From Candidatus Dadabacteria bacterium CSP1-2 (lineage in GTDB: Bacteria > Desulfobacterota_D > UBA1144 > Nemesobacterales > CSP1-2): a stretch of DNA of 64,000 nucleotides. A program made the translations under genes and the position numbers. Below the pieces are notes generated by a model. It saw only the letters and a list, made by a program, of their open reading frames with translations. It did not search any database and was not told the DNA's origin. The stretch's first letter is position 1. Each line of letters opens with the position of its first letter. The stretch lies in NCBI GenBank assembly GCA_001443445.1, contig LDXN01000009.1, positions 4,798-68,797 on the forward strand. The letters are read 5' to 3'. Below are positions 1,488 to 49,848 of this stretch, in pieces.

Positions 1488-1503
1488 TTAACAGGAGGTT
1501 GCC

Positions 1504-10080: not shown

Positions 10081-10087
10081 AAACGCT

Positions 10088-19517: not shown

Positions 19518-19598
19518 GTTCGTAGTTCGTGAATCGGGTATCCAATCGTTCGACTGAGCTCACGACGAAGTCACAAATCACGAACCCCGGTCCACGAC
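19518..19598. repeat. Heptad-type spacer element (CG family) between rpoC and valS
   Basis: The left arm reads gttcgta gttcgtg aatcggg ... and the right arm reads tcacgac gaagtca caaatca cgaaccc cggtcca cgac. The two arms are approximate reverse complements. Confidence 0.7.
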
Positions 19599-22500
19599 TT
19601 ACTCTTTAACAGGGGTAGGAACGGGTATTTCCGGCGCTATGATTTCTACATCTACATCCCTATACATAGGCAGCCCGGTGCCAGCGGGTATTAATCTTCC
19701 CATAATCACATTTTCTTTTAGTCCGCGAAGACTATCCACCTTTCCTTCACAAGCCGCCTCTGTAAGTACCCTTGTAGTTTCCTGGAATGACGCTGCGGAA
19801 AGCCAGCTATCAGTGCTGAGAGAGGCCCTAGTGATACCAAGAAGAAGTGGCTCTGCTGTGGCCGGTTTTCCGCCCTGAGAGGTAACCCTTTCATTCTCTT
19901 CAAAGAAGATAATCCTTTCAACTGGTTCTCCAACAAGGAATGTTGTATCACCCGGATCCTTAACTCTCACGCGCTTTAACATCTGCCTTACTATAATCTC
20001 TATGTGTTTATCATTAATCTTAACCCCCTGGAGCCTGTAGACCTGTTGTATTTCGTCTACTAGATATCTCGCAAGGGCCTTCTCACCACGAATTCTCAGT
20101 ACATCATGAGGATTTACAGCGCCATCAACAAGCTGGTCTCCAGCCTTCACACGTTCGCCATCTCTAACTAGCACATGCTTTCCTCTTGGTACAAGGTAGT
20201 CCTTCGCTTCACCAATATCTGGAGTTACAACCATCTTTCTCTTTCCCTTTGAATCCTTTCCAAAGGATACGATTCCATCAATCTCACTCACTATCGCAGG
20301 ATCTCTAGGAAGCCTTGCTTCAAAGAGCTCTGCTACCCTTGGCAGTCCTCCAGTGATGTCCTTGGTCTTAGCCGTTTCTCTTGGAATCTTTGCAAATACA
20401 TCCCCTCCATGAACCATATCACCTTCGTTCTTTTCAATAATCGCCCCAACTGGAAGGAGATACTGGGCTGCCTTTCCATGTTTGTCGGTAACGACTATGG
20501 TAGGATGTAAATCGGGATTTTTCGATTCAACAACCACCTTTTTAAAAATTCCTGTTACCTCGTCCACCTGCTCCTTCATGCTTATACCCTCTTCAAGGTC
20601 CTGGAAGCTTACACGCCCATCCACCTCTGAGATAAATGGAGTGGTGTATGGATCCCACTCAGCAAGAAGCGATCCCCTTTTTATTTGATCACCCTCTTCA
20701 ACCCTCAACTTCGCTCCGAGAACAAGTGGATACCTTTCACGCTCGTATCCCATCTCATCCACTATAGCTAGAATTCCAGTACGATTTATTACAACGAGTC
20801 TTCCCTCGTTATTCCTCACTGTCCTAACACCGATAAGCTTTACAACACCCTCGTGTCTGCTCTCAAGTGTACTTTCTGCAACCCTCTGACTAGCAGCACC
20901 ACCTATATGGAAGGTTCTCATAGTAAGCTGGGTGCCCGGCTCCCCAATAGACTGGGCTGCTATAATCCCTACCGATTCTCCGATATTTACCAGAGCTCCT
21001 CTTGCAAGGTCTCTTCCATGGCAAAGCACGCACACACCTTGACGGGCCTCGCAAGTAAGAACAGACCTTATTTTTAACTCCGTAACGCTTCCCGCCTCGT
21101 CGATAGCGTTCGCGGCCTGCTCGTCTATCTCTTCGCTTGCCCTTACAATAATCTTTCTAGTTACAGGATCTCTAATGTCTTCAAGCACAACACGACCTAG
21201 GATTCTCTCTCCTATCCTATCTATTATCTCTCCACCTTCTATAAGTGCCCCAACTGTGATCCCATCAATCGTACCGCAGTCAAATTCCGTTATGGTTGCA
21301 TCTTGAGCAACATCAATCAACCTTCTAGTAAGGTATCCCGCATTTGCAGTTTTTAAGGCTGTATCAGCAAGCCCCTTTCTAGCTCCATGTGTTGAGATGA
21401 AGTACTGAAGCACTGTGAGGCCCTCACGAAAGTTAGATGTAATTGGCGTTTCAATAATCTCCCCTGAGGGCTTAGCCATAAGACCCCTCATCCCAGCGAG
21501 CTGGCGAACCTGGGTTTGGCTTCCTCTCGCACCTGAATCCACCATCATATAGATTGGGTTTGTGCTTGGAGCTTGGATCTCAGCCTCATTTTCGTCTTTT
21601 AAAATATCAATAGATAATTCCTTAAGCATCTCCTGAGCGATTTCTTCGCTCGTCTTAGCCCATATATCTATAACCTTGTTGTACCTTTCACCATCGGTTA
21701 TGAGCCCCTGAGAATATTGTGTTTGAACCTTTACTACCTCGTTATAAGCCTTATTTATTAGCTGCTCCTTTTTCTTTGGAATCTTCATATCATCAATTGA
21801 GATTGAAATCCCTGCTTTGGTCGAAAATTGAAACCCGAGCGTCCTCAAACGGTCTGCGAGTATAACTGTGCTCTTTCCACCGGCAACTCTAAAGCAGCTA
21901 TCTACTAGTTCCTCGATAGCACGTTTTGTCATCACCTTGTTCACTAGTTCAAAAGCAACCTCTCTTGGCATGATCTCGTAAAGCAGTATTCTGCCAACGG
22001 TAGTTTCATGCATCTTTTCATCAATTCTTACGCGTATCTTAGCATGAATGCCAACCTCATTTAAATCATAAGCCATCCTAACCTCTTCAATTGATGAAAA
22101 GGCCTTACCCTCTCCTTTCTCGAAGGGAACCTCTCTCGTCATATAATAAATACCAAGCACTATATCCTGCGTAGGAAGTATTATTGGTTTTCCGTGCGCT
22201 GGTGAGAGAATATTATTGGTTGACATAATAAGGGCCCTGCATTCTGTTTGGGCTTCAACAGAAAGCGGTACATGTACAGCCATCTGGTCTCCATCAAAGT
22301 CTGCGTTGTAAGCAGGGCATACAAGGGGATGTATTTGAATAGCTTTATCTTCAATAAGTTTTGGTTCAAAAGCCTGGATGCTTAGGCGATGAAGAGTTGG
22401 AGCACGATTTAGTAGCACAGGATGCTCCTGCACAACCTCATCAAGTGCATCCCAGACAACTGGTGCTTCTTGCTCGACAAGCTTTTTTGCAATTTTTATT

Positions 22501-23675
22501 GTCTGTGCCTTACCCCATTTCTCTAATTTTTGATATATAAAAGGTCTAAAAAGCTCAAGTGCCATCTGCTTTGGTAAACCACACTGATGGAGTCTCAGCT
22601 CAGGACCAATCACGATCACAGAGCGTCCTGAATAATCCACCCTTTTCCCAAGAAGGTTCTGACGGAACCTCCCTTGCTTTCCTTTTATAATGTCACTTAG
22701 ACTTTTTAGTGGACGGTGATTGTGAGCTAGGACAGGTCTCCCGCGCCGTCCGTTTTCAAATAGGGCATCTACAGCCTCTTGAAGCATCCTTTTTTCATTT
22801 CTAACAATGATATCAGGCGCCCCAAGCTCTAGTAATTTTCTTAGTCTGTTATTCCTATTTATTACACGACGGTAAAGATCATTTAAATCAGAGGTAGCAA
22901 ATCTGCCTCCATCTAGCGGAACAAGGGGTCTCAAGTCAGGAGGAAGTATAGGGATTTTTGTTAGAATCATCCACTCGGCTCGGTTTCCAGATTGTCTAAA
23001 GGCTTCAACAATCCTGAGCCTCTTAGCGATCCTAGCCCTCTTTATTTGAGATGTAGTATCCTTCATCTCTAACCTAAGATGTTCTGAGAGTTCGACAAGG
23101 TCTATTTTCTTAAGCATCTCCCTAACCGTTTCAGCCCCCATTCCAACCTTAAAAGTGGGTCCGTATTCCTCAAGTAATTTTCTGTACTTCTCTTCACTGA
23201 GAACCTCTCCAAATTTCAGTTGTGTTCCACCTGGATCTACAACTACATATGCCTCATAGTATAAAGCCCTTTCTAATTCCTTTAGCGTCATATCCAAAAG
23301 CATTCCTATTCTGCTTGGGATGCTTCTCAAAAACCAGATATGAGCAACCGGTGAAGAAAGCTCTATATGCCCCATCCTTTCACGCCTTACTTTGCTCGAT
23401 ATAACCTCTACGCCACATTTCTCACAGGTATGCCCCCTATGTTTAAGCCTTCTATATTTTCCGCAAAGACACTCATAATCCTTTACTGGACCAAATATCT
23501 TAGCGCAGAATAGACCGCTCCTTTCCGGTTTGAACGTTCTATAGTTAATTGTCTCTGGCTTTTTTACCTCACCTGAAGACCAATCCTTGATCTTATCAGG
23601 CGAAGCAATAGCAATCTTCACAGAAGAGTAGTCCGAAGGGTTCTTCGGTTTTTCAAAGAGGGTATCTATATCCAC
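19599..23675 (-). CDS. rpoC: DNA-directed RNA polymerase subunit beta'
   Basis: 1358 aa, unsplit, with NADFDGDQM and N-terminal Zn-binding cysteines. Confidence 0.97.
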
Positions 23676-23677
23676 TT

Positions 23678-26600
23678 TTACCTTCCTCCCTTTTGTTTTT
23701 GTAATCCTACTTTTCCATTCCCGCCTTCCTCAATAAGGTCTATATCAAGTGCAAGGGCTTGAAGCTCTTTTACTAGAACCTTGAAAGACTCTGGAAGCCC
23801 AGGTTCAAAATTCATATCGCCCTTTACGACTGAATCGAATATTCTAGTTCTCCCGATTACATCATCGGATTTCACCGTGAGAAATTCCTGAAGTGTGTAA
23901 GCGGCTCCGTACGCTTCGAGTGCCCAGACCTCCATCTCTCCAAGCCTCTGCCCCCCAAAATGGGCTTTGCCACCAAGGGGCTGCTGTGTAACGAGAGAAT
24001 AGGGTCCAATAGCCCTTGCATGAATCTTGTCTTCTACAAGATGATGGAGCTTAAGCATATACATAACACCTACAGTTACCCTTTGATCAAACGGCTCACC
24101 TGTGCGTCCATCAAAGAGTATCGTTTTCCCATCCTCCGGGAGCCCGGTGATTTTAAGCATCTCCTTTACTTCCCCTTCAGTTGCGCCGTCAAACACAGGA
24201 GACTCAATAGGTACCCCTTCTTTTAGTCTCTTCGTGAGTTCAACTACCTCTTCATCCTTTAATTCGTCAATAAATCGCCTAATCCCCTTAGAGTCATAAA
24301 TTTCCTTAAGCTTTCTCCTAAGTGATCCTGGGCTAAACTCCTGCTCAATATACTCATTTAGCTGTTGACCAAGCTCCTTTGCTGCCCAGCCCAGATGCGT
24401 CTCTAGAATCTGTCCTACGTTCATCCTTGAGGGAACACCAAGCGGATTAAGCACCATATCAACTGGGATTCCATCAGGAAGAAAGGGCATATCCTCTTCA
24501 GATAGTATCTTCGATATAACGCCCTTATTTCCGTGTCGTCCTGCCATCTTGTCTCCTACTTGGAGCTTCCTTAGTACTGCGACATGAACCTTCACTACCT
24601 TTAGCACCCCAGGAGGAAGTTCATCAGGTCGGGTCAGCTTGTCTATTTTATTGTTATAGACCATCTTTACTAAATCAATTTGTTCAAGAGTCTTTTCAAT
24701 CGCTATTTTAACCTCGGTCTCTACCTTCTCTCCCTTTTCAACACTGATATCACCTAACTTTTCAAATGGTATAGGCTGAAGATCTTCTTCGGTTATCTTT
24801 TCACCCTTCTTAATCACCATTTTTCTATTTACCGTTAACCTTCCTGCAGCTACTTTGCCCACTAGGAGGGGTCTTATTCTTTCAATTGCACCTTCTTTCA
24901 AGATCTTTATTTCGTCATCCCTGTCTTGTTTAAGACGCGCTACCTCAAAATCCTCTATACTCTTTGCCCTCTCGTCTTTATCTACCATTCTCGATGTTAG
25001 CATCTTTACATCAATTACAGTCCCGTATACCCCAGGATTCGCCCTAAGGGAGGTATCTTTTACATCACCTGCCTTATCTCCAAATATAGCCCTAAGAAGC
25101 CTTTCTTCAGGTGAAAGTTGGGTTTCTCCCTTTGGAGAAATCTTACCAACAAGTATATCTCCAGGCTTTACCTCAGCCCCAATTCTTATTATTCCACTTT
25201 CATCCAGATCCTTAAGCGTATCCTCGCCCACATTGGGAATGTCCCTGGTGATTTCCTCACGCCCAAGCTTTGTCTCGCGTGATATACACTCAAACTCTTC
25301 AATATGGATAGATGTGAATTTATCATCCCTTACAATCCTCTCGCTTATAAGGATCGCATCTTCAAAGTTGTATCCCCCCCATGGCATAAAAGCTACGACC
25401 ACATTCTGCCCGAGAGAAAGCTCGCCGTGACTTGTCGAGGGACCATCTGCAATAACTTGTCCCTTTGTAACGTACTGTCCCTTTTTTACGAACGGCCTTT
25501 GATTCCAGCATGTATTCTGATTTGATCTTTGAAACTTTATCAAATTATAAATATCAACCCCAGCATCATTTCCATCACCCGTTACCCTTACGACAATTTT
25601 AGACGCATCCACATACTCCACTATACCATCCCCCTTTACAACTACTGTTATTCCTGAATCCTTAGCCACTGTCTTTTCAAGTCCTGTCCCAACTAATGGT
25701 GCGGAAGTTCGAATAAGAGGAACAGCCTGACGCTGCATGTTAGATCCCATGAGCGCTCGGTTTGCATCATCATGCTCAAGAAACGGAATAAGAGCGGCTG
25801 ATACCGAAACGAGCTGAGCCGGAGATACATCCATAAACTCAACCTTTTCGCGCTCAACCATGAAGAATTCACCTTTATGACGTGCTGATATAAGTTCAGA
25901 CTTAAAGTGCCCATCCTCATCTAAAGGTGCGTTTGCCTGAGCAATTACATATTTCTCCTCTTCAAAAGCGTTCAGATAAAAGATTTCAGAAGTTACCTTT
26001 CCGTTTTTTACAACCCTGTAAGGAGCTTGAATAAAACCATCATCGTTCACCTTCGCATAGGTACTTAAGCTAGATATAAGACCAATGTTTGGACCCTCTG
26101 GCGTTTCAATTGGGCATATTCTTCCATAATGTGAAGCGTGAACGTCACGGACCTCAAACCCTGCACGCTCCCTTGTAAGCCCACCAGGCCCAAGTGCGCT
26201 TAGCCTTCTTTTATGTGTAATCTCAGATAACGGGTTCGTTTGATCCATAAATTGAGAAAGTTGTCCTGTTGCAAAGAACTCCTTTACAACTGAGATAACA
26301 GTCTTTGGTATAAGAAGTTCACTTGGCATCAGGTTCTCTACAGCTTGATACCCCATCTTCTCCCTTACTGACCTTGCAAGCCTCTCTAGCCCATGATAAA
26401 AGCGTTCCTCTACGAGTTCTCCAACTGTTCGAACCCTTCTATTACCTAGATGGTCAATATCATCAATCGAACCCCTAGCACCTTTGAGGTTAAGGAGATA
26501 CTTAACTGTCCCCATTATGTCTTCCTTCGTTAATGTAAGATCGTCTTCAGAGACTTCTCGATTTAGTTTATAATTAACCTTAATCCGGCCTACCTTAGAA

Positions 26601-27814
26601 AGCCTATATGTATCGGGATTAAAAAAGAGGTTATAGAAGAAGTTTTCAGCAACCCCTAGGGTCGGCGGGTCAGTGGGTCTAAACTTTTTATAGATTTCTC
26701 TAATCGCATCCTCGGAGGTTTTAGTCTTATCAGCAAGAATGGTGTTTCTAAGTGATGCACTTATAGCGATGTTATCTATATAAAAAACCTTAAACTCCTT
26801 TATCCCTCGAGCCCTAATCTCTTGAAGTTTTTCCTCTTTTATCTCCTCGTTGAAATTAAGTAATACCTCCCCAGTCTTTTGATACACAATGTCATCTGCA
26901 CAATGTCTGCCTATTATGTCAATTATTTGAATGGGAATTCTTTCAAGCTTTGCCTGACGGAGTTTATCAATTAGGTTTCCTACAAACTTTTTTCCCTTTT
27001 TTACTATAACCTCACCAGTCTTTGGATCCACTATGTCTACACTAGATTTTTGATAAGAAAGAACCTCCGGGTCAACGCTCTTTTTTATCCCATCTGTTTC
27101 AAAATAGATGGTTTCAGTTGGATAGAAATAAAGCATTATCTCTTTGGTGGTATAGCCAAGTGCCTTGAGAAGCACAGTGACAAGAAACTTTTTTTTTCTA
27201 TCGATTCTAACATGCAAGTGGTCCTTAGAATCGAATTCAAAATCAAGCCACCTTCCATCCTGTGGAACAATCCTGGCTGAGTAAGAGGTCTTTCCCACAA
27301 TCTGGTCCTTATCTTTACCCTGATTGAAGAATACCCCCGGTGAGCGGTGTAGCTGATTGACTATAACCCTCTCGGTGCCATTTATGATGAATGCGCCATT
27401 TGGGGTCATTAGCGGAATCTCGCCGAAGTAAACCTCCTGCTCCTTTACATCCCTTATCGTTCGCTCACTACCAGAGCCTGATTGAGTATCCCATATCACT
27501 AGGCGAAAAATCACATAGAGCGGAGCGACGTATGTGTAACCCTTCATCCGGCACTCATTAGTTTCGTGCTTTGGCTTATCAAGACGGTAGCTAACATATT
27601 CAAGCGATGCGCGGCCATTGTAATCCTCTATAGGAAATACAGTCTTCAATGCACGGAGAAGTCCAATATCCCTTCTTTGATCAGGACTTACATCTCTTTG
27701 AAGAAACTCGTTATACGATTTTATTTGAACCTCAAGAAGATGCGGTATTTCGAGAACAGACGGAATCTTTGAAAAACTTTTTCTTTTATAAGTTTCTACT
27801 CCCTCGAAATTCAC
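23678..27814 (-). CDS. rpoB: DNA-directed RNA polymerase subunit beta
   Basis: The ORF is open to 27901, but its first 29 codons translate the heptad repeat. A GTG at 27814, preceded by a G-rich stretch gggggtagagataag (no clean SD), gives [18 protein letters not shown]..., the usual RpoB opening. Confidence 0.93.
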
Positions 27815-27842
27815 CTTATCTCTACCCCCTTTTTGTTTATTT

Positions 27843-27912
27843 TTCGTGGCTTGTAATTCGTGGATAGTGGCTCGTAATTCGATACACGATTCTCGATTCA
27901 CGAACCACGGTC
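27843..27912. repeat. Heptad array (CG family), 10 units in register
   Basis: The units read ttcgtgg cttgtaa ttcgtgg atagtgg ctcgtaa ttcgata cacgatt ctcgatt cacgaac cacggtc. CG occupies positions 3-4 in 8 of 10 units, and the halves are inverted. Confidence 0.85.
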
Positions 27913-28311
27913 CTAATTAATTTCTGCTGTTGCGCCCGCTTCTTCAAGCTTCTTTTTCATGGCCTGTGCTTCTTCTTTCTTCACATCTTCTTTCACAGTC
28001 TTTGGAGCCCCTTCAACAAGCTCTTTCGCTTCCTTAAGACCAAGTGAGGTAATCTCCCTTATGGCCTTTATCACTTGTATCTTGTTCTCTCCGATGGATT
28101 TTAGCACTACGTTGAACTCCGTCTTTTCAGCTTCAGGCGCTTTAGCTTCAGCCGCCCCAGCACCGCCTACTTGTGTAGAGACCATAGCCACCTGTGGAGC
28201 GGCAGCCTTTACACCGAATTTTTCCTCGATCTCCTTTATTAACTCCGAAATCTCAAGCATACTTGCGCGCTCAAGATATGAAATTACATCGGCCCTTGTA
28301 ACATCAGCCAT
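27913..28311 (-). CDS. rplL: 50S ribosomal protein L7/L12
   Basis: 132 aa with an Ala/Glu/Lys-rich hinge and the typical C-terminal domain. Confidence 0.95.
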
Positions 28312-28390
28312 TGTCTAAAACCTCCTTTTTGTGATTAGTATTTAGTGTTGTTACTAGATAGACCCCTTTTCTAAAAATTTCTATAACTAT

Positions 28391-28924
28391 TTATACCTCT
28401 TCTTTTTTCTCTTTCAGATCTTTGAGTGCGTTTAATGCGTATAATAAACGCCTCTCGAGCTCCATCAACGTACTCATAAAATTAGAGATAGGAGATGAAA
28501 GTAGTCCGAGAAACTCTGTTAAAAGTGCTTGTCTTGAGGGAAGTTGTGAGAGCTTTGAAACATCGCTAACACCAATTACCTTGCCTTCAACAATGCCACC
28601 TTTTAATTTAAGTACAGGCAACTGCTTGGCAGATTCAGCGAAAACCTTAGCAACAACCACCGGATCCTCTTTACATATTGCTACAGCAGTGGCTCCCTCG
28701 AACAGGTCTTTTATCCTTTCTATATCAGTCTCGCGAGATGCTATTTTAAGAAGCGTGTTCTTAGCAACCTTAAAATCAGCTTTGGCTTTTTTAAGACGCC
28801 GCCTTAGCCCTTCTACCTCCTTTACAGTTAGCCCCTTATATTCAACGACAAATAGTGAAGGACTTGTTTTAAATCTCTCATTAAAATCTTTTACAACTTG
28901 CTCTTTGACAACCTTAGTTAACAT
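28391..28924 (-). CDS. rplJ: 50S ribosomal protein L10
   Basis: 177 aa in the conserved position between rplA and rplL. Confidence 0.93.
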   Translation of the reverse strand: MLTKVVKEQVVKDFNERFKTSPSLFVVEYKGLTVKEVEGLRRRLKKAKADFKVAKNTLLKIASRETDIERIKDLFEGATAVAICKEDPVVVAKVFAESAKQLPVLKLKGGIVEGKVIGVSDVSKLSQLPSRQALLTEFLGLLSSPISNFMSTLMELERRLLYALNALKDLKEKKEEV

Positions 28925-28944
28925 TATTCTACTCCTTATTAAAA

Positions 28945-29038
28945 TGATGCACGATGCATGAGGTTTTTATCTGTATCCTTTATCCTGCATCCTGTATCTT
29001 GCATCCTGCATCCTGCATCCTGCATCTTGTATCTCATG
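28945..29038. repeat. Heptad array (TCCTGCA / TGATGCA family) filling the rplA-rplJ spacer
   Basis: tgatgca cgatgca tgagg.. is followed by atctgta tccttta tcctgca tcctgta tcttgca tcctgca tcctgca tcctgca tcttgta tctcatg. That is 10 units in register, and the rplA stop lies in the last unit. Confidence 0.85.
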
Positions 29039-29756
29039 CTGCTATCTCAAATCCCTTTAGCTCATCGCGGATGCTTAAGGGATCAACCTTTATTCCCGGA
29101 CCCATTGTAGTAGAAAGCACAACCTTTTTGATAAATGTCCCTTTCGACGAAGATGGCTTCATCCTTGTGATTGTATCCATAAGCACAAGAAAGTTCTCTC
29201 TAAGCTTATCTGAACCAAAAGAGGCCTTTCCAACCGGGGTATGAATAACACCACCCTTATCATTTTTTATCTCGATTCTCCCCGCTTTTGCTTCCTTAAC
29301 CGCTTTTCCTATCTCGAAAGTTACAGTCCCAACCTTCGGGCTTGGCATAAGCCCTCTAGGACCGAGTATCTTACCAAGCTTTCCCACCAGGTTCATTACA
29401 TCGGGGGTTGCAATAGTAACCTCAAAATCAAGCCAATTTTCTTTGGAAATCTTCTCAATTAAATCTTCAGCACCGACGTAATCTGCACCTGTCTCCTGAG
29501 CCTCTTTCACCTTGTCACCTTTTGCAAAAACCAATACCCTCACACTTCTTCCTGTCCCGTGTGGAAGAACAATAGCTCCTCTAATCTGCTGGTCAGCATG
29601 ACGTGGGTCAATGCCGAGTTTGACTGCAGCCTCTACAGTTTCATCAAATTTCGCAGTTTTTGTTTCTTCAACTATCTTTATCGCTTCCCGAACTTCATAC
29701 AGTTTTGTAGAATCAATCTTTTTTTTAGCTTCTAAGTACCTTTTCCCTCTCTCCAT
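29034..29756 (-). CDS. rplA: 50S ribosomal protein L1
   Basis: The track ORF starts at a TTG (29771). The ATG at 29756 follows GGAGG plus 6 nt and gives [15 protein letters not shown], the usual L1 opening. Confidence 0.93.
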
Positions 29757-29777
29757 TTTTGCCTCCTTCAAATAAAT

Positions 29778-29847
29778 TCAGAAGTCAGGAGTCAGCAGCC
29801 AGAAGTTTTCTTCCTTTCTTCTGAATTCTGACTCCTGAATTCTTCTC
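29778..29847. repeat. Heptad array (TCAGAAG / TCTGAAT family), 10 units in register
   Basis: The units read tcagaag tcaggag tcagcag ccagaag ttttctt cctttct tctgaat tctgact cctgaat tcttctc. tcaggagtcag (29786-29796) is the exact complement of ctgactcctga (29828-29838). Confidence 0.85.
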
Positions 29848-29848
29848 A

Positions 29849-30265
29849 CTATACGACCTCAATACCCATACTCCTTGCCGTTCCCTCAACAATCTTAACT
29901 GCGGCTTCTATATCATCAGAATTTAGATCAGGCAGCTTTATATTAGCTATTTCTCTTACCTGTGACCTTGTTACCTTACCTACCTTTACCCTTGATGCTG
30001 TAACTGAGCCCTTATCCAATCCTGAAGCCTTTTTTAACAAATATGACACCGGAGGAGTTTTAATTATAAACGAAAATGATCTATCTGCATAAACTGTCAC
30101 TATAACAGGAAATATTCCATCCATCTTTGATGTCTGTGCATTAAAAGCCTTACAGAATTCCATTATATTTACACCCTTTTGTCCAAGAGCCGGTCCTACA
30201 GGAGGAGAAGGCGTTGCCTTCCCAGCAGGAACTAAGAGCTTTACTTCTCCAATTACCTTTTTCAT
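29849..30265 (-). CDS. rplK: 50S ribosomal protein L11
   Basis: 138 aa with the motif [17 protein letters not shown]. Confidence 0.95.
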
Positions 30266-30266
30266 C

Positions 30267-30824
30267 CTAAATTCTCTCCACTTGAGTGAAATCCAATTCT
30301 ATTGGTGTTGTCCTACCAAATATTGTTACCAGAACCTGAACCTTGCCCTTTTCAGGTTTGACTTCGTCAATAAGACCCGAGAAATTTACAAAAGGACCAT
30401 CTGTGACTCTAACAGTTTCTCCCTTCTCAAATGTAACCCTAGGTTTTGGTTTCAGGGTTCCTTCTTCTATTTGCCTCTTTATCTTAATAACCTCTTTTTC
30501 ATCTATACTAGGAACGGAATCAGGGTCAATCTTTCCTTCTTTCAGCTTACCACCAACAAACCCTATCACCTTTGGTATGTTTCTAATAAAATGCCAACTT
30601 CTCTCGTTAAGCTCCATGTTGACTAGGATGTACCCTGGGAAAAATCTCCTAAATGAGGTTTTCTTTCTGCCACCTTTTACTGGCTCGATGATGGTTTCAG
30701 TAGGCACTAAAACCTCATGAACAGATACCTCCATCCCTTCTAGTTTGACCCTCTCTTCAATTAAGGCCTTTACACGATCCTCAAAGCCTGTATTTATGTG
30801 AACCACGTACCACCTATAAGCCAT
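30267..30824 (-). CDS. nusG: Transcription termination/antitermination factor NusG
   Basis: 185 aa with NGN and KOW domains, in the conserved secE-nusG-rplK position. Confidence 0.93.
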
Positions 30825-30847
30825 ACCTATTTATTTCTCCGTCTCTC

Positions 30848-31051
30848 CTAACTCAAAACGTACTTTACTACTAATGAGAACAAGAAGTCTATTGCTCCCA
30901 AAAATGATGCAAGAATAATAGAAATAACGATAACAGCCCCGGTCGAACGAATTGATTCCCTAAGGGATGGCCATGATATGCGCTTTGCTTCAACCTCAAT
31001 ATCCTTAAAAAACTGAACAAGCATAGCTATTAATTCATTTATTTTTTCCAT
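30848..31051 (-). CDS. secE: Preprotein translocase subunit SecE
   Basis: 67 aa with a single C-terminal TM helix, in the conserved position. Confidence 0.85.
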   Translation of the reverse strand: MEKINELIAMLVQFFKDIEVEAKRISWPSLRESIRSTGAVIVISIILASFLGAIDFLFSLVVKYVLS

Positions 31052-31153
31052 TTCTCCTCAGTTATAGCCATTAAGGCAATTTGACGTTATTCATTAGTCG
31101 CTTATTTCCCAAAAATTATTTCATCAAGTATCATAGAGCAAACACATAATTTA

Positions 31154-31227
31154 CAGGGCAGGAGGGACTCGAACCCCCAACCGCTGGATTTGGAGTCCAG
31201 TGCTCTACCAAATTGAGCTACTGCCCT
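31154..31227 (-). tRNA. tRNA-Trp (anticodon CCA)
   Basis: Reverse complement is agggcagtagctcaatttggtagagcactggactCCAaatccagcggttgggggttcgagtccctcctgccctg. The acceptor stem agggcag/ctgccct and the cloverleaf fold by hand. Usual position upstream of secE. Confidence 0.9.
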
Positions 31228-31235
31228 TAATAAAA

Positions 31236-31316
31236 TGATGCGTGATACAAGATTCATGATGCACATTGCCTCTTGTATCCTGCATACCGCATCTTTCCAT
31301 CCTGAATCCTGTATCT
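31236..31316. repeat. Heptad array (TGATGCA / TCCTGCA family) between rpmG and tRNA-Trp
   Basis: tgatgcg tgataca agattca tgatgca cattgcc is followed by tcttgta tcctgca taccgca tctttcc atcctga atcctgt. Same word family as 28945-29038. Confidence 0.8.
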
Positions 31317-31475
31317 TTACTTTGTCTCCTTATGTAAGGTATGGCGTCTACACCATCTGCAGTATTTCTTGAGCTCCATTTTATCCCTATGGGTTTGTCT
31401 GTTCTTTCTAGTAGAATAATTCCTTCTTTTACAGTCACTGCAAGCAAGTGCAATAATTACAGTGTTATCTCCCAT
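31317..31475 (-). CDS. rpmG: 50S ribosomal protein L33
   Basis: Hand-translated as [52 protein letters not shown] (52 aa, CxxC...CxxC). Missing from the ORF track. Track ORF 31205-31453 is an out-of-frame artefact. Confidence 0.9.
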
Positions 31476-31486
31476 TTAGGACCCCA

Positions 31487-32671
31487 CTACTGAGTGATTT
31501 TAGTAACTACTCCTGCTCCTACTGTCCTTCCCCCTTCTCTTATTGCAAACCTTAACCCCTCCTCCATCGCCACTGGCGCTATCAACTCCACATCCATGTT
31601 CACATTATCCCCTGGCATCACCATCTCTACCCCATCTGGCAGCTTTATATTCCCTGTCACATCTGTTGTCCTTAGGTAAAACTGCGGCCTATACCCTGTG
31701 AAAAATGGTGTGTGCCTTCCCCCCTCCTCCTTCGTTAATACATACACCTCTGCCTTAAGCCTCGTATGCGGCGTTATACTCCCCGGCGCTGCCAATACCT
31801 GCCCCCTCTCCACCTCATCCTTCCCTACCCCCCTTAATAACACCCCTACGTTATCCCCTGCTACCGAATCATCTAGTATCTTCCTGAACATCTCTAAACT
31901 AGTCGCTACTGTCTTCCTTGTCTCCTTAAACCCTACTATCTCTACCTCCTCCCCTGCCTTTATCTTCCCCCTCTCTACCCTTCCTGTCACCACTGTTCCC
32001 CTTCCCGATATGGTGAATACGTCTTCTATTGCCATCAAAAATGGCTTGTCTACCTCCCTCACCGGCTCTGGTACGTACTTGTCTACTGCGCTCATTAATT
32101 CTAGTACCTGCTTCTCTGCCACTGCATCACCCTCTAATGCCTTTAGCGCACTTACTCTCACTATCGGTATCTCATCCCCTGGAAACCCATATTTGGTTAA
32201 TAATTCCCTTACTTCTAGCTCCACTAAATCTAATAGCTCAGGATCATCCATCGCATCTACCTTGTTTAGGCATACCACTATGCATGGCACACCTACCTGC
32301 CTTGCCAATAATATATGCTCTCTTGTCTGGGGCATTGGCCCATCTGGTGCGCTCACTACTAGTATTGCCCCATCCATCTGTGCTGCCCCGGTTATCATGT
32401 TCTTTACGTAGTCTGCATGCCCAGGACAGTCTACATGCGCATAGTGCCTCTTGTCTGTCTCATACTCCACGTGTGCTATGTTTATTGTTATCCCCCTCTC
32501 CTTCTCCTCTGGCGCCTTGTCTATCTCATCAAATGGGACAAACTTTGCCTTGCCTTGCTTCTCTAGTATCTTCGTTATTGCCGCTGTAAGTGTTGTCTTG
32601 CCATGATCTACGTGCCCTATTGTCCCTATGTTTAAATGCGGCTTCTTCCTCTCAAACCTCTGCTTCGCCAT
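31487..32671 (-). CDS. tuf: Elongation factor Tu
   Basis: 394 aa with [15 protein letters not shown] and NKVD motifs. Codon usage is highly atypical (see findings). Confidence 0.97.
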
Positions 32672-32701
32672 AGATTTATTACCTCCTAATATCTTGTTTA
32701 G

Positions 32702-32862
32702 CCACTAACGAACAACAAGCACGAATCACTAAATTCCGATTCCCAAGAATTCAGAAGTCGGAATCCAGAATCCAGAAGATAAAACTCTAACTTCTGAATT
32801 CTGATTTCTGGCTCCTGACTTCTTATTTGAGATTTGAAATTTGTTATTTGGAATTTGTAGTT
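32702..32862. repeat. 23 consecutive heptads in one register (three word families) filling the fusA-tuf spacer
   Basis: The units read ccactaa cgaacaa caagcac gaatcac taaattc cgattcc caagaat tcagaag tcggaat ccagaat ccagaag ataaaac tctaact tctgaat tctgatt tctggct cctgact tcttatt tgagatt tgaaatt tgttatt tggaatt tgtagtt. Confidence 0.9.
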
Positions 32863-32865
32863 TCA

Positions 32866-34947
32866 TTACGCCCCTTTTACTCTGGCCTTAATCCCTTGAG
32901 AAAGCATCTCAGGAACATCGGCATAGTGTGAGAACTCCATAGTAAACGTACCTCTTCCCTCTGTCATAGATCTTAAATGAGTGGCATAACCAAACATCTC
33001 AGAAAGAGGCACCTCCGATTTTATAGCTTGCATACCGCCTCGTAGCTCCGTCCCAATAATTCTTCCTCTTCTCGAACTTAAATCCCCAATTACAGATCCC
33101 ATAAACTCTTCGGGTACAACAACCTCAACACTCATCAAGGGTTCAAGAATTACAGGAGAAGCACGTCTAACCGCATCCTTAAACGCCATTGAAGCGGCGA
33201 TCTTAAATGCTATCTCAGAAGAATCCACCTCGTGATAAGATCCATCGTAGAGTCTCACACCAAAATCAACAACAGGATATCCTGCGATAACACCAGTCAC
33301 CATTGCCTCTTCAATACCCTTTTCAACAGCCGGTATATACTCTTTTGGAATTGCTCCACCCTTAATCTCATCTATAAACTCAAAACCCGATCCTCGTTCT
33401 CTAGGTCCTAATCTTATTTTCACATGACCGTATTGGCCACGCCCACCGGTCTGGCGGATAAACTTTCCCTCAGCCTGAGAAGAGGCTGTGATTGTTTCTT
33501 TATATGCTACCTGAGGCTTTCCAACATTTGCATCAACCTTAAATTCACGTTTTAGACGATCAACTATTATTTCTAAATGAAGCTCTCCCATACCGGCAAT
33601 AATAGTCTGACTGGTCTCTTCGTCGAACTTAACCTTGAATGATGGGTCCTCTATTGCGAGCTTTCCAAGCGATATACCAAGTTTTTCCTGATCGGCTTTA
33701 GTTTTTGGCTCAATTGCAACAGAAATAACAGGTTCAGGAAACTGAAGGCTTTCAAGAATTATAGGCTTATTTTCATCTGAAAGTGTATCACCTGTAATTG
33801 TATTCCTAAGACCAACCGCTGCAGCAATATCTCCTGCGCTTATCTCCTTGATCTCCTCACGTTTGTTTGCGTGCATCCTGAGAAGCCTTCCGATTTTCTC
33901 CCTACTACCCTTTCTTGAGTTATAGACGGATGTCCCTGAGGCAAGCTTTCCCGAATATACCCTTAAATATGTAAGCTGACCGACAAATGGGTCTGTCATT
34001 ATTTTAAAAGCAAGCGCAGAGAATGGCTCGGTTTCTTTTGGATACCTAAACTCCTCCTGATCAGTATATGGGTTTATCCCCTTTACAGGAGGCAAATCTA
34101 TCGGCGAGGGAAAAAAATCTACAACAGCATCAAGAAGGGTTTGAACGCCCTTGTTTTTAAATGCTGAACCACAAAGCACCGGGACTGCATTTATTACGAT
34201 AGTAGACTTTCTTAACACGCTTTTTATCTTTTCTTCTGTAATGGGCTTCCCGTTAAGGTAGTTTCCCATTACCTCTTCATCAAAATCTGAAAGAGATTCT
34301 AAGAGTTTCTCCCTACCCAAAATAGCTTGATCTTTTACCTGATCTGGTATTTCGATAAACTCATATTTAGATCCTAGAGAGTCCTCCTCCCAGACTACTA
34401 ATTTCATCTGAATAAGATCAATTATCCCTTTGAATTCATCATCATCAATCCACGGAATTTGAATAAAAATAGGATTAGAGTTTAATTTATTCCTGATCTG
34501 GTCAATAGTTTTAAAGAAATCAGCCCCCACTCGGTCCATCTTATTAACAAAAGCAATCCTTGGAACGTTGTAGCGGTCAGCCTGTCGCCATACTGTTTCA
34601 GATTGTGGTTCAACACCGCCGACACCATCGAAAACCACAACAGCTCCATCAAGTACCTTTAAAGACCTTTCAACCTCGATCGTAAAATCCACGTGTCCTG
34701 GAGTATCAATAATGTTGATTCTATGGTCACGCCAGAAACAAGCGGTAGTTGCTGCAGTAATGGTGATACCCCGCTCCCTTTCTTGTTCCATCCAGTCCAT
34801 TATGGCTGTGCCTTCATGAACCTCGCCAATCTTATATGTCAGACCAGTGTAATAAAGGATGCGCTCTGTCGTTGTGGTCTTACCGGCATCTATATGGGCA
34901 ATAATCCCAATATTTCTAGTCTTTTCTATAGTTACGTTACTACTCAA
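32866..34947 (-). CDS. fusA: Elongation factor G
   Basis: 693 aa with [17 protein letters not shown] and NKMD motifs. Confidence 0.97.
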
Positions 34948-34964
34948 TTATTCTCCCCCCAAAC

Positions 34965-35435
34965 TTACCACCTATAATGAGCAAAAGCCCTATTGGCTTC
35001 AGCCATCTTTTGTACATCTTCTCTTTTTTTAATCGCTCCCCCACGCCCTTGAGCTGCATCCATAATCTCGGATGCAAGCTTTTCTTCCATTGATTTTCCT
35101 TGCCTACCCCTTGCAGCATTGATTATCCATCTTATAGCAAGAGATAGACGACGAAATTGGTTTACCTCGATTGGAACTTGATATGTAGCTCCACCTACCC
35201 TTCGAGGTCTTACCTCAATAACCGGCTTTATGTTTTCCATCGCTGTATGAAAAACCTCTAGGGGATCCTTTTCCATTTTTTTACCAACCGTTTCGACAGC
35301 TTTATAGAAAATGTTTTCAGCTATACTCTTCTTTCCATCGTACATAAGGGAATTTATAAACTTTGCTACCATCAAATCTCCGTACTTAGGATCCGTAGAA
35401 ATCCGTCTCTTAGAAACTGAACCTTTTCTTGACAT
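34965..35435 (-). CDS. rpsG: 30S ribosomal protein S7
   Basis: 156 aa, typical S7 sequence and position. Confidence 0.95.
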
Positions 35436-35452
35436 CGTGGTTTTTTACTTAA

Positions 35453-35824
35453 TTACTTGGGTCTCTTGGCACCGTATTTAGAGCGGCTTTTTCTTCTATT
35501 CTGCACGCCCGTGGCATCCAATGAGCCCCTTATAATATGGTATCTTACGCCAGGAAGGTCTTTTACCCTACCACCCCTTACAAGAACTACCGAATGTTCC
35601 TGAAGTGAATGTCCTTCACCAGGGATATAACCAGTTATCTCCATACCATTTGTAAGCCTTATACGGGCAACCTTTCTAAGAGCCGAGTTCGGTTTTTTGG
35701 GAGTGGTAGTATACACTCTGATGCATACACCCCTTTTTTGAGGACAGCTCTGTAGAGCTGGAGCCTTACTTTTCTTCGTTAACTGCTCTCTCCCCTCTTT
35801 TACCAGTTGCCCAATTGTAGGCAT
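35453..35824 (-). CDS. rpsL: 30S ribosomal protein S12
   Basis: 123 aa with the motif [12 protein letters not shown]. Confidence 0.95.
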
Positions 35825-35863
35825 ATATTACAGTTTCTCCTACATATCAAAAATGAATTTAAA

Positions 35864-35893
35864 ATTATAATCATGAAATGCTTATGTTGTCAA
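35864..35893 (-). promoter_or_regulatory. Candidate sigma-70 promoter of the rpsL operon
   Basis: On the minus strand: TTGACA (35893-35888), an 18-nt spacer, then TATAAT (35869-35864). AGGAG precedes the rpsL ATG about 40 nt downstream. Confidence 0.5.
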
Positions 35894-36070
35894 GAAATAT
35901 GTAGTTGCTTGTAGTTGCAAAATGATAATGTCACCCCATGGGTTTTTGGGATAATTTCTGAATTTATCAGGAATTATCCACAAGGAGGTAGAAACACTGA
36001 TGGAAGTATTAACCTTGAGGCAGCAGGAACGATTAATGGTTATTCAAACTGGCAGAAACCTTTCTACTAG

Positions 36071-37024
36071 CTATTCCCCGTGTTCTTCAATGAACTTTTC
36101 TGCATCCATAGCAGCCATGCATCCTGTGCCAGCCGCTGTTATAGCCTGCCGATACCTATGGTCTTGAACATCACCTGCTGCAAACACTCCAGGAACACTT
36201 ATCTCTGTTGTTCCATTTTTCGTAATAATATATCCCTTTTCATCCATCTCGAGTTGTCCCTTAAAGAGCTTTGTGTTAGGAGTGTGACCAATTGCAACAA
36301 ATACTCCTTGACATGCTTTTTCGCTTATCTCTCCTGTAACTACATTCCTTATTTTTACTCCAGTTACGCCTTTTTCCTTATCCCCTATTATTTCCTCAAC
36401 AACAGAATCCCAAATAAATTCTATCTTTTTATTTTTAAATGCCCTCTCTTGCAAAATCTTTGACGCTCTTAACCTATCCCTTCGATGAATGACGGTTACC
36501 TTAGTAGCATACTTTGTAAGAAATACTGCCTCCTCTACCGCTGTATCGCCACCTCCAACTACAACAACTTCCTGATCTTTGAAGAAAAAGCCATCACATG
36601 TAGCACAAGTTGAAACACCATGTCCAAGTAGTCTTCTTTCCGAATTAATACCAAGGAGCTTAGCAGATGCTCCAGAAGCGATTATTAATGTATCTGCCTG
36701 TAAAACCGTCTCTCCTGCTACTATCTTGAATGGCCTTTTTGAAAGGTCTACAGAGGTTACTTCTGCAAATACACACTTTGCGCCGAATCTTTCTGCTTGC
36801 TTTCTCATATAATCCATTAGGTCAGGCCCCATAATTCCATCTGGAAAGCCTGGGTAGTTTTCAACAGCGGTTGTTAACGTAAGCTGACCCCCTGCTTGTG
36901 TTCCTTCAAAGACAATCGGTTCGAGGTTTGCTCTTGCAGCGTATAATGCCGCAGTGAAACCAGCGGGTCCTGAACCGATGATAACTACTTTGTATCTTTG
37001 CTTCAACTCTTCTAAATTACTCAT
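36071..37024 (-). CDS. trxB: Thioredoxin-disulfide reductase
   Basis: 317 aa with GSGPAG, the redox-active CATCDG and a second dinucleotide fold GGGDTA. Confidence 0.93.
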
Positions 37025-38254: not shown

Positions 38255-39346
38255 ATGAAAAAAACCTTGCTTTATGATGTTCATTCTTTGCTAGGTGCTA
38301 TTTTTGATGACTTTTCAGGTTTTTTAATGCCTAAAAGTTACAATAACCCTTTAGAGGAATATCTCGCTGTAAGAAAAGGTGTTGGCCTTATTGATCTTTC
38401 GCATCGAGGGAAGTTGCGTATAAGTGGAAAGGAACATTTAAAATTCCTACAGGGCATGGTGACTAATGATGTTATGAAATTAGAAGAAGGAAAAGGCCTA
38501 TACGCAACCCTACTTACAGTAAAGGGAAAAATGGTCGCAGATATGAGGATATATCGGGAGAAAGAATCAGTACTACTCGAGCTAGAGCCGGGTCTTAATG
38601 AAAAAGTCAGGGAACTCTTACTTAAATATAGACTATCCTACAAAGCGAATATTGAAGACCTAACTGATACTTACTGTTTACTCTCTATTCAAGGTCCTAA
38701 TTCCAAAAGGCTTCTTGAAAAATACTTGGGTAAAGAAATCCCAGAACTAAAGGAATATGAATTTCTTAAAAGAGAGATTGTCAGCACTGAGGTTATGATA
38801 ACAAGAGTAAATCGAACAGGGGAAGAGGGATATGATTTTTTCATCCAACCTGATGGAGTTAAGCTTCTTTGGGAATCTCTAATTGGAAATGGTAGAGACC
38901 TTGAATTAAAACCTGTTGGTCTTGAGACAATGGAGACCATAAGAATTGAAGCAGGCGTTCCCAAATATGGCGTAGATATGGATGAAGACACAATCCCGCT
39001 TGAGGCAGGACTCCTCGATGCAATAAGTTTTGAGAAAGGATGCTACGTGGGACAAGAAGTAATTGCGCGTATCAAATGGAGAGGTCATGTAAATTGGTGT
39101 CTTGTTGGATTAGAAATTGAAGGCGAAAACTTGCCTTCAAAGGGTGATAAAATTTTTCACGGTGAACGCGAAATCGGTCATATAACAAGTAGTGTATTTT
39201 CTCCAGTACTTAATAAGGTAATAGCCCTTGGATACATAAGAAGGGAATTTAAAGATCCTGAGACTAAGGCTATAGTAAGGATAAACAGCAAAAGCAAATC
39301 AGCAACGGTTGTAAGAACGCCATTTCTTCAAAGTCGTGGTTCGTGA
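38255..39346 (+). CDS. Aminomethyltransferase-family (GcvT/YgfZ-like) folate-binding protein
   Basis: 363 aa with VGLIDLSHRGKLRISG..FLQGMVTNDV. The last 4 codons and the stop lie inside the heptad array that starts at 39332. Confidence 0.8.
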   Translation: MKKTLLYDVHSLLGAIFDDFSGFLMPKSYNNPLEEYLAVRKGVGLIDLSHRGKLRISGKEHLKFLQGMVTNDVMKLEEGKGLYATLLTVKGKMVADMRIYREKESVLLELEPGLNEKVRELLLKYRLSYKANIEDLTDTYCLLSIQGPNSKRLLEKYLGKEIPELKEYEFLKREIVSTEVMITRVNRTGEEGYDFFIQPDGVKLLWESLIGNGRDLELKPVGLETMETIRIEAGVPKYGVDMDEDTIPLEAGLLDAISFEKGCYVGQEVIARIKWRGHVNWCLVGLEIEGENLPSKGDKIFHGEREIGHITSSVFSPVLNKVIALGYIRREFKDPETKAIVRINSKSKSATVVRTPFLQSRGS

Positions 39347-39398
39347 ATTGTAGCTCGTGTATCGAATCACGATTCACTAAATACGATACACAGCTCAG
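39332..39398. repeat. Heptad array (CG family), 9 units in register
   Basis: The units read agtcgtg gttcgtg aattgta gctcgtg tatcgaa tcacgat tcactaa atacgat acacagc. The array runs from inside the CDS end up to the tRNA-Val 3' end. Confidence 0.85.
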
Positions 39399-39473
39399 TG
39401 GTGGGCGGTACTGGATTTGAACCAGTGACTTCCACCGTGTGAGGATGGCACTCTACCGCTGAGTTAACCGCCC
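39399..39473 (-). tRNA. tRNA-Val (anticodon CAC), CCA encoded
   Basis: Reverse complement is gggcggttaactcagcggtagagtgccatcctCACacggtggaagtcactggttcaaatccagtaccgcccacca. The acceptor gggcggt/accgccc and the D, anticodon and T stems all pair. Confidence 0.9.
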
Positions 39474-49640: not shown

Positions 49641-49848
49641 TAGCCACAAATGAACAGGCTCCAATGACCATATACAAAACAAACTAAAAATCTCAAGCAC
49701 TAAATATCAAACAAATCTTAATTTCCAAGTATCAAATTCCAAACAAATTCTAAATCAAGAATAAATACAAGATTCATTCTAGCCTCGTTTCATTTTGATT
49801 TGTTTGGGATTTGGAATTTGTGATTTCATTCGTGTCAATTCGTGGCTA
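49641..49848. repeat. About 208-nt imperfect palindrome built of heptads, with TAGCCAC[A/G]AAT termini
   Basis: The left end tagccacaaatgaac pairs with the right end attcgtggcta. The right arm reads atttgtt tgggatt tggaatt tgtgatt tcattcg tgtcaat tcgtggc. In the left arm, units end cca/tca/cca/aat/aat/aat/aca/tca every 7 nt. Confidence 0.8.

Follow-up and report, generated by a model that had tools for sequence, protein, structure and literature searches.

Degenerate heptanucleotide repeat arrays with hairpin-forming potential fill spacers of a ribosomal-protein and RNA-polymerase gene cluster in Candidatus Dadabacteria

What fills the long spacers between the translation and transcription genes of Candidatus Dadabacteria bacterium CSP1-2, and could it act as RNA? 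We analysed a 64-kb window (the whole stretch of DNA studied here, from contig LDXN01000009.1; 81% coding), whose minus strand carries, in this order, rpsL, rpsG, fusA, tuf, rpmG, tRNA-Trp, secE, nusG, rplK, rplA, rplJ, rplL, rpoB, rpoC and valS. An initial annotation, made from the DNA letters, had cut most of the 194-nt spacer between fusA (32866-34947, minus strand) and tuf (31487-32671, minus strand) into 23 consecutive heptanucleotides and proposed that such arrays recur in other long spacers as intercistronic hairpins. We find that the arrays are simple sequence repeats (SSRs) built of degenerate 7-nt units, which are gained and lost as whole units among near-identical strains, and that a function as RNA is plausible on folding models.

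The 23 heptads are the exact sequence of positions 32702-32862 (161 bases), and adjoining units there have 2-6 of 7 bases in common. Tested against 1000 dinucleotide-preserving shuffles, the identity between bases seven positions apart (lag-7 identity) was 0.62 in this segment compared with 0.27 ± 0.03 after shuffling (z = 10.2; 0/1000 shuffles as high), and the spacer as a whole (32672-32865, minus strand) is period-7 throughout (z = 9.1). Eight further sites had been claimed as heptadic, and 7 of the 8 bear this out: 28945-29038 (z = 8.2, identity 0.70), 27843-27912 (6.3), 31236-31316 (6.0), 29778-29847 (5.5), 39332-39398 (4.8), and 19518-19598 and 49641-49848 (3.7 each), whereas 9971-10080 shows no such signal (z = −0.5). 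The period-7 test against dinucleotide shuffles that the initial annotation had suggested thus gives a clear excess in this window, with z up to 10.2. A sliding scan of the whole window found identity of at least 0.6 at 151 positions for lag 7, compared with 0-9 positions for the other lags from 4 to 12; strict three-unit windows at lag 7 were intergenic in 26/26 cases, and there were none at lags 6 or 8-11. Tandem Repeats Finder (TRF) independently called period-7 repeats at 27880, 28971, 29778, 29819, 32746, 32792, 32825 and 49803.

Two claims about the phasing of these units fared differently. The absence of register slip is real among the direct units of the fusA-tuf spacer, which stay coherent over distance (lag-35 identity still 0.38), but it has no independent meaning between hairpin arms. 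The suggestion that three heptads make 21 bp, or two helical turns, found no support: a search by lag identity gave no 21-nt superperiod, because identity decays smoothly over lags 7, 14, 21 and 28. The units form four to five graded families recurring at ~9 loci within the 64 kb. The initial annotation had counted at least four word families, and several degenerate families are indeed present, but they are not discrete: units blend into one another, as in CAAAUUC to AGAAAUC to AGAAGUC, and in the relative L087 a left arm of GAUGCAA stands opposite a right arm that passes from UCUUGCU through UCUGGCU to UCUGACU.

The fusA-tuf spacer folds as RNA at −49.4 kcal/mol (z = −3.0) and reads, on the transcribed strand, as three parts. 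Five direct CAAAUNN heptads follow right after the fusA stop codon (32824-32858, minus strand) and have no complementary partner in the spacer; this block, stop codon included, is 86% identical over 28 nt to 49803-49830. A core imperfect hairpin of 37 predicted pairs (32740-32831, minus strand) comes next, with a left arm of AGAAGUC-type units (32789-32823) and a right arm of UGGAUUC/CGACUUC-type units (32747-32780), and it is 73% identical over 63 nt to the rplK-rplA element; another pair of paralogous copies inside the window is 82% identical over 28 nt. Four UUCGUGN-like heptads (32705-32732, minus strand) lie 3′ of the hairpin, followed by the tuf Shine-Dalgarno sequence AGGAGG. The 5′ CAAAUNN and 3′ UUCGUGN-like units are not complementary to each other, and the description of the spacer as one long palindrome therefore applies to the central ~90 nt (32740-32831) but not to the unpaired units on either side.

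The usual layout on the transcribed strand is a stop codon, heptads, a short loop, near-complementary heptads, 10-50 nt, a Shine-Dalgarno sequence and a start codon. The first heptads lie at the upstream stop codon or no more than a few bases away, and the arrays end before the Shine-Dalgarno sequence in the four spacers with a recognisable one. In five cluster spacers the heptamer array forms one arm of a predicted main hairpin domain of 15-29 pairs. The rplK-rplA hairpin (29775-29848, minus strand; lag-7 z = 4.8-5.5) sets UCAGAAU/UCAGGAG units on the left (29818-29841) against CUGACUU/CUGCUGA units on the right (29775-29805) and folds at −31.6 kcal/mol (z = −6.3). Between rplA and rplJ (28944-29033, minus strand; fold z = −3.2), nine GAURCAR units run from the rplA stop codon (28971-29033; TRF score 77-84), with a short partner, CUCAUGCAUCGUGCAUCAU, at 28944-28962. 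At rplL-rpoB (27843-27912, minus strand; lag-7 z = 6.3-6.4; fold z = −4.3), UUCGUGA/AAUCGAG units (27878-27905) face CCACGAA/UUACAAG units (27843-27870). The spacer at 31229-31316 (minus strand), between rpmG (31317-31475, minus strand) and tRNA-Trp, has a left arm of GAUACAG/GAUUCAG-type units (31267-31315) and a right arm of UGCAUCA/UGUAUCA units (31235-31263), folds at −31.2 kcal/mol (z = −5.9; antisense, −21.9) and has a 3′ flank, CAUCAUUUUAWUAAGG, in common with the rplA-rplJ element. The main hairpin of the rplK-rplA, rplA-rplJ and rplL-rpoB spacers ends upstream of the Shine-Dalgarno sequence, at a distance of 21-52 nt from the start codon.

Weaker UUCGUGA/UCACGAA heptads lie in the rpoC-valS spacer (19518-19598, minus strand; lag-7 z = 3.7), and UCGUGAA/ACGAACC heptads lie between the convergent 3′ ends of gcvT (plus strand) and tRNA-Val (minus strand) (39333-39397, minus strand; z = 4.8). 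A further hairpin (49708-49832, minus strand; z = 3.7-3.9), placed between an SBF-family transporter gene and an EamA transporter gene, sets CAAAUUC/CAAAUCC units (49787-49822) against GAAUUUG/UUUGGAA units (49723-49756). The site at which the period failed is an intercistronic hairpin between purL and purF (9974-10076, plus strand) that contains CACGAA/UUCGUG words at no 7-nt period and folds, over the spacer 9972-10087, at −33.3 kcal/mol (z = −5.9) in the sense strand versus −25.7 in the antisense. Long intercistronic hairpins thus exist here without heptads, which suggests, on these folding models, that intercistronic RNA hairpins may be a general habit of this genome. Among spacers of at least 60 nt, arrays occur in 6/8 within the cluster versus 2/33 in the rest of the window (Fisher P = 1.6 × 10⁻⁴), an enrichment that may reflect high transcription or just insertion-tolerant spacers. 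No terminator-like site was found in any spacer on the minus strand and no U-tract follows the rplL-rpoB hairpin; short UUUU runs alone follow the two GAURCAR hairpins. The search of Rfam that had been suggested for these spacers found no family: at the gathering threshold it returned two tRNAs only, and at E ≤ 1 over 19300-36300 the matches in or near the spacers were all far below threshold, namely miRNA-like hairpins at 29780-29843 and a thermometer match within fusA.

Among related strains the arrays change by whole units. The nearest genomes are Candidatus Dadabacteria metagenome-assembled genomes (MAGs) with nusG identities of 97% and 94%, the next relatives standing at ~55%; nusG identity is 84% for the relative L003 and 75% for L005. 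The rplA-rplJ spacer is 109 nt long in the window, 102 nt in contigs L401 and L405, 95 nt in L407 and 81 nt in the relative L001, with flanks otherwise identical, and the differences are exact 7-nt steps of GAURCAR units. Elsewhere an entire spacer has been exchanged: the window and L001 share 96-98.5% DNA identity in the flanking genes, but their rplK-rplA spacers cannot be aligned (49%), the sequence being replaced from stop codon to Shine-Dalgarno sequence, with a UCAGAAU-type hairpin in the window and a GAUACAG-type hairpin in L001 and L002. In the same comparison the rplL-rpoB spacer is 100% identical and the rplJ-rplL spacer 97.5%. The fusA-tuf spacer is the same 194 nt, with 1-2 single-nucleotide polymorphisms, in 9 independent contigs (L401-L408 and L410), and the rplK-rplA and rplL-rpoB spacers are identical in L401, L405 and L407 (rplL-rpoB also in L001). 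Comparison with related genomes, another check that had been proposed, thus places the arrays in independent assemblies and not in this contig alone. Groundwater or sediment samples containing the lineage include JGI 3300044501 and 3300034994 and ENA ERZ272547xx-8xx.

The explanation that we favour, and consider fairly probable, is that these are heptanucleotide SSR arrays of the short tandemly repeated repetitive (STRR) or long-SSR type, which turn over in unit steps and supply generic intercistronic hairpins. They show the marks of the SSR class, with a tandem 7-nt excess at 8 loci, confinement to non-coding DNA and whole-unit length variation. In most spacers one run of units precedes another that is nearly complementary to it, which lets either strand form a long hairpin studded with mismatches. 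Units would originate and be renewed as arrays expand and contract in unit steps, either through replication slippage or through a transcription- and hairpin-dependent process as in Haemophilus influenzae hmw, and recombination or gene conversion between arrays would spread them. Transcribed within polycistronic mRNA, they would form generic stem-loops acting as RNase III-type processing sites or as barriers to 3′ exonucleases, and their sequence and copy number would be free to drift because the hairpin would matter and not the word. Three lines of evidence make such an RNA function plausible: the arrays lie against stop codons, with the Shine-Dalgarno sequence left free of the hairpin in rplK-rplA, rplA-rplJ and rplL-rpoB; the heptad-free relative L003 keeps a strong rplL-rpoB hairpin (sense −34.4 versus antisense −17.4 kcal/mol), suggesting that what is conserved at this position is a hairpin and not the repeat; and H. 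influenzae offers an experimental precedent.

Several observations weigh against this explanation. The picture of arrays as inverted halves forming long imperfect hairpins holds for five spacers (fold z −3.0 to −6.3), but the folds of 19518-19598 (z = −0.3) and 39330-39400 (z = −1.6) are no better than those of shuffles. The sense strand is the stabler one in 13/18 spacers, with a mean difference of −2.5 kcal/mol (P = 0.18), and the GAURCAR hairpin between rplK and rplA of L002 folds at −20.6 kcal/mol in sense versus −33.7 in antisense; because sense is not significantly better and some antisense strands are much better, these are palindromes without clear RNA-level optimisation. Nor is the hairpin obligatory, since the fusA-tuf spacer includes direct repeats that stay unpaired and the rplA-rplJ array of L002 lacks a partner arm. 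In the minimum-free-energy fold of the fusA-tuf spacer, weak outermost pairs touch the AGGAGG Shine-Dalgarno sequence, 8 nt from the tuf start, and no Shine-Dalgarno sequence was recognised before valS. The case for slippage is read from length polymorphism, the apparent enrichment in the cluster comes from one 64-kb window, and the turnover model gives no reason for the 7-nt unit size.

A neutral mutational by-product is possible, although we lean against it: a lineage tendency to expand 7-nt units would fill whichever spacers tolerate them, and the hairpins would have no RNA role. This remains a serious rival because the sense strand is not significantly stabler than the antisense, and it sits well with the fast turnover of units and copy number and with the replacement of one whole spacer. 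The trait is also patchy among close relatives, being present in L001, L002 and L004 and lacking in L003, L005 and 75 more distant (mostly Syntrophales-type) nusG loci. Arbitrary heptad units are, moreover, abundant across phyla. A scan for three consecutive GATRCAR units gave at least 120 matches across many phyla, archaea included, and GCTRAAR, a control unit of the same composition, also gave at least 120 matches in many phyla; heptad-rich loci seeded with the control held 135 distinct units among 161 arrays. One special conserved unit is thereby ruled out, and finding one unit in several phyla does not point to a shared factor, because the control unit is widespread too. Lag-7 array density was 29 per 100 kb in loci found with GATRCAR versus 1.1 in control nusG loci, and a 26-nt right-arm pattern of the UCAGAAG family occurred, among the matches listed in metagenomes, on contigs of 33-71% GC.

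Folding of 259 arrays gives something to each side: about a third fold with z > −1, as a neutral origin would allow, but 40% fold with z < −3. Immediately after stop codons GATRCAR occurs 37 times in sense versus 18 in antisense, a bias that points away from neutrality but is weak evidence as an orientation count, the gene context of foreign loci coming from crude open reading frame (ORF) calling in which spurious ORFs read through many arrays; of the results from that calling, this count alone was used. Neutrality also accounts poorly for arrays that abut stop codons and avoid the Shine-Dalgarno sequence in rplK-rplA, rplA-rplJ and rplL-rpoB, for the non-heptadic, sense-biased hairpin of L003 at the same rplL-rpoB position and for the array enrichment in a highly expressed cluster, and the heptamer hairpin of H. 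influenzae is functional.

Similar arrays occur in the same operon of distant lineages. Eighty fusA loci, picked by protein similarity alone and with genes placed by tblastn, held 57 arrays (9.8 per 100 kb). The rpsL-rpsG, rpsG-fusA and fusA-tuf spacers are filled with arrays of unrelated units in many Acidobacteriota (L334, L339, L344, L355, L360, L375, L379, L385, L386, L391 and L399) and in two Nitrospirota (L323 and L329); several of these str-operon arrays are hairpins, and the fusA-tuf spacer of L323 has AAACUGA-like units. The arrays of L355, L360 and L379, relatives of Edaphobacter, Terriglobus and Granulicella, lie in the rpsL-rpsG and rpsG-fusA spacers. Judged from these sequences, the shared architecture appears to be convergent and of independent origin. 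It would take on a different meaning if Dadabacteria, Nitrospirota and Acidobacteriota possessed one cross-phylum class of intercistronic RNA elements whose 7-nt phasing reflects shared machinery, an idea that we regard as a long shot. That machinery might be an oligonucleotide/oligosaccharide-binding (OB)-fold protein with a 7-nt footprint (a cold-shock or S1 domain), or else a mechanism, coupled to transcription and RNase III, by which mRNA is processed and arrays are made to expand in unit steps. Such a class, if true, would amount to a self-renewing, sequence-independent setting of relative cistron output in the most highly expressed operons.

Equally doubtful is a phased array of single-stranded RNA sites, ~7 nt each, for a multimeric or multi-domain protein whose binding would compete with the hairpin. 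Cold-shock-domain or S1 OB-fold proteins or CsrA are the candidates, and they would tune the translation or decay of neighbouring cistrons. The strict 7-nt phasing over up to 160 nt and the modest sense bias after stop codons are what such a protein might produce. GAUGCAG read cyclically gives CAGGAUG, which we take to be the consensus of the CsrA-binding repeats in CsrB. CsrA sites present GGA in loops or single-stranded stretches, but here GGA occurs in one unit family only, inside predicted stems, and many units are GAUACAA and lack it. MacGregor proposed S1, Csp and CsrA for TAACTGA repeats, some of which lie inside ribosomal-protein operons. One genome here nevertheless has several unrelated unit families, units are extremely diverse across genomes and no candidate protein was identified within the window. 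A sequence-specific protein array is hard to reconcile with the rplK-rplA spacer, because there, between flanks 98% identical, close relatives have replaced the whole spacer with another unit family.

We consider it very unlikely that the arrays are repetitive extragenic palindromic (REP) elements, hairpins of paired REPs (REPINs) or miniature inverted-repeat transposable elements mobilised by a Y1 (IS200-like) transposase of the REP-associated tyrosine transposase (RAYT) type, with the heptads incidental. Paralogous copies with common ends do occur at different loci, one spacer was replaced like a cassette, and the arrays follow stop codons in extragenic DNA, as REPs do. The window also holds a RAYT-like gene (4673-5608, minus strand), with Y1_Tnp and DnaA C-terminal helix-turn-helix domains, but its REP_Tyr_transpos score of 60.5 bits is below the NCBIfam cut-off of 80. 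This gene is flanked by perfect 23-bp inverted repeats, GGGTCAGGCATGCAWATTGACTT (region 4652-5655), which are unlike the heptads and have no further copy in the window or in 400 fetched loci; mobilisation by the RAYT-like gene is disfavoured because the gene has its own, unrelated inverted repeats. The copies are just 73-86% alike, mainly through common units, no target-site duplications or fixed termini were seen, and polymorphism in 7-nt steps is the behaviour of SSRs, not of transposition.

Although repeats can mis-assemble in metagenomes and the join across a duplicated tuf is ambiguous, an assembly or sequencing artefact, or chance, can be practically discounted because the 194-nt fusA-tuf spacer recurs in nine independent metagenome contigs of separate origin (JGI and ENA samples), other spacers are identical between L401, L405 and L407, and z reaches 10 with 0/1000 shuffles as high. 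Three further candidates were rejected. Palindromic units such as TTCWGAA or ATGCAT+N do not underlie the pairing, as 22/432 non-seed sub-arrays (5%) of heptad-rich loci have fully self-complementary units versus 8-10% expected; a common motif near several hairpins, GTGGCTRAAYA, was found 6 times versus 3.6 expected, not above chance; and integron attC-like sites were set aside on inspection only, with no scan, the flanks being conserved core genes and no GTTRRRY standing at the hairpin ends.

The surroundings of tuf deserve separate mention. An identical Tuf protein is encoded on at least 23 contigs from separate samples, followed downstream by rpsJ and the S10 operon in L402-L404 and L406 and by rpmG-tRNA-Trp-secE-nusG in the window, L401, L405 and L407; in L409 the upstream context of tuf differs. 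Because identical Tuf contigs run into two different neighbourhoods, tuf is duplicated, which is also why many contigs end at tuf, and the fusA-tuf-rpmG join of the window may be an assembly chimera across the tuf repeat. In the search for orthologous fusA-tuf spacers, the closest fusA match was only 77% identical. Before the other tuf copy, L409:3805-4000 contains a GAUGCGR/GAUACAG heptad hairpin inside a perfect 16-bp inverted repeat, CCAAATAGACACGAAT / ATTCGTGTCTATTTGG; for the core of 146 nt (3840-3985) the fold reaches −45.9 kcal/mol (z = −4.6). Strains differ in the length of the tuf-rpsJ spacer, with 200 nt in L402 (5186-5385) versus 45 nt in L403, L404 and L406 (5186-5230), and the extra DNA comprises two GC-rich stem-loops, GACGGGAC...GTCCCGT and GCGGGGTT...AACCCCGC; this is an insertion polymorphism of another kind than heptad turnover. 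Within the S10 operon, the rplB-rpsS spacer (L402:8112-8182; L403:7957-8027) has the heptads GGAUUUC AGAUUUC ... UCCGAAU UCCGAAA, and its fold is no better than those of shuffles (z = 0.2).

Three features of the window lie beside the repeats themselves. A mechanical ORF (23678-27901, GTG start) adds 29 codons to rpoB by running through the heptad array (27815-27901); the sequences of relatives and the TIGR02013 match place the real rpoB start at the GTG at 27814, and arrays without stop codons can inflate ORF calls in this way. Upstream of rpsL, a perfect sigma-70 consensus (TTGACA, 18 nt, TATAAT; 35864-35893, minus strand) is probably the operon promoter. Two paralogous B12-binding radical SAM genes (470 and 473 aa) stand side by side at 75-2925 (plus strand).

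How do these arrays compare with known systems? Knowledge of heptanucleotide repeats in bacteria goes back to 1990, and STRR sequences in the strict sense belong to heterocystous and filamentous cyanobacteria, with units such as CCCCAGT, TTGGTCA and CAACAGT. The window arrays are not STRR in that sense, as their units differ, the closest relatives of their host are Dadabacteria MAGs and rpoC is unsplit (1358 aa, TIGR02386), as the initial annotation had said. In E. coli, the rplL-rpoB spacer contains an intercistronic attenuator and an RNase III site. The likeness is a structured spacer at the same operon position, present also in the heptad-free L003, whereas the rplL-rpoB spacer here has no U-tract or terminator pattern and no sequence or Rfam similarity. 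Some REP elements stabilise upstream mRNA. REPs, bacterial interspersed mosaic elements and REPINs resemble the arrays as imperfect palindromes in 3′ and intercistronic positions, with a RAYT-like gene in the window, but REPs show neither heptad periodicity nor variation in unit steps, and copies within the 64-kb window are only 73-86% alike.

The closest relatives in kind are other heptamer repeats. Cyanobacterial STRRs, whose 7-bp repeats come in several unit types, fold into hairpins in the hupS-hupL intercistronic region (PMC2670836), with proposed roles in transcript stability or translational coupling (PMC2670836; PMC4692102). The initial annotation had overstated the contrast with them, since STRRs are also multi-unit 7-nt repeats with intercistronic hairpins (PMC2670836): both consist of tandem 7-nt units, of several types per genome, in intergenic DNA that includes spacers within operons, and both are capable of hairpins. 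The differences are a Dadabacteria-like host with unsplit rpoC, units that are unrelated and more degenerate, and pairing of arm with counter-arm that is the rule here and occasional in STRRs. As relayed by two later papers, heptamers are the most abundant long SSR class in many prokaryotes, with polymerase slippage as the hypothesis (Mrazek 2007 via PMC4679880, PMC4692102), and the long SSRs so described (Mrazek, Guo & Shah 2007) resemble the window arrays in an over-represented 7-nt unit, intergenic position, sporadic phylogeny and whole-unit length changes.

TAACTGA repeats occur in ribosomal-protein operons of marine Beggiatoaceae, including upstream of fusA, and a post-transcriptional role has been proposed for them (MacGregor 2015, PMC4679880); they are also found in cyanobacteria and Bacteroidetes, with S1, Csp and CsrA as proposed binders (PMC4679880). 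Heptamers inside ribosomal-protein operons are common to both systems, but TAACTGA is a single unit, nearly always direct (with one indirect set), that abuts start codons and usually replaces the Shine-Dalgarno sequence, whereas the window arrays have many units and inverted arms, abut stop codons and keep the Shine-Dalgarno sequence. In the 5′ untranslated region (UTR) of H. influenzae hmw, (ATCTTTC)n is an arm of a hairpin cleaved by RNase III, and changes in its copy number require transcription and folding (PMC12721329); the same study puts forward a mechanism by which transcription, folding and RNase III are tied to changes in repeat length. Both systems use a heptamer SSR as an arm of a long imperfect RNA hairpin (here a predicted one) and vary by whole units. 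The hmw repeat, however, lies in the 5′-UTR of one phase-variable adhesin, pairs with a right arm that is a non-repeat G-rich tract and has been demonstrated experimentally, whereas the window arrays have repeats in both arms, lie between cistrons of housekeeping operons and are known here from sequence alone.

In the papers open to our search we found no reports of such arrays in Dadabacteria, Acidobacteriota or Nitrospirota. By this comparison the Dadabacteria case alone is an extension of a known phenomenon and not a new mechanism. It adds hairpin-paired repeats occupying the spacers of essential, highly expressed genes in a lineage for which our search gave no earlier report, together with unit-step polymorphism and whole-spacer replacement that are measurable among natural strains. 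Because some of the loci with this architecture belong to genera that have cultured members (Edaphobacter, Terriglobus and Granulicella), the idea of processing or stability and, from H. influenzae, that of transcription-dependent expansion become testable outside pathogens.

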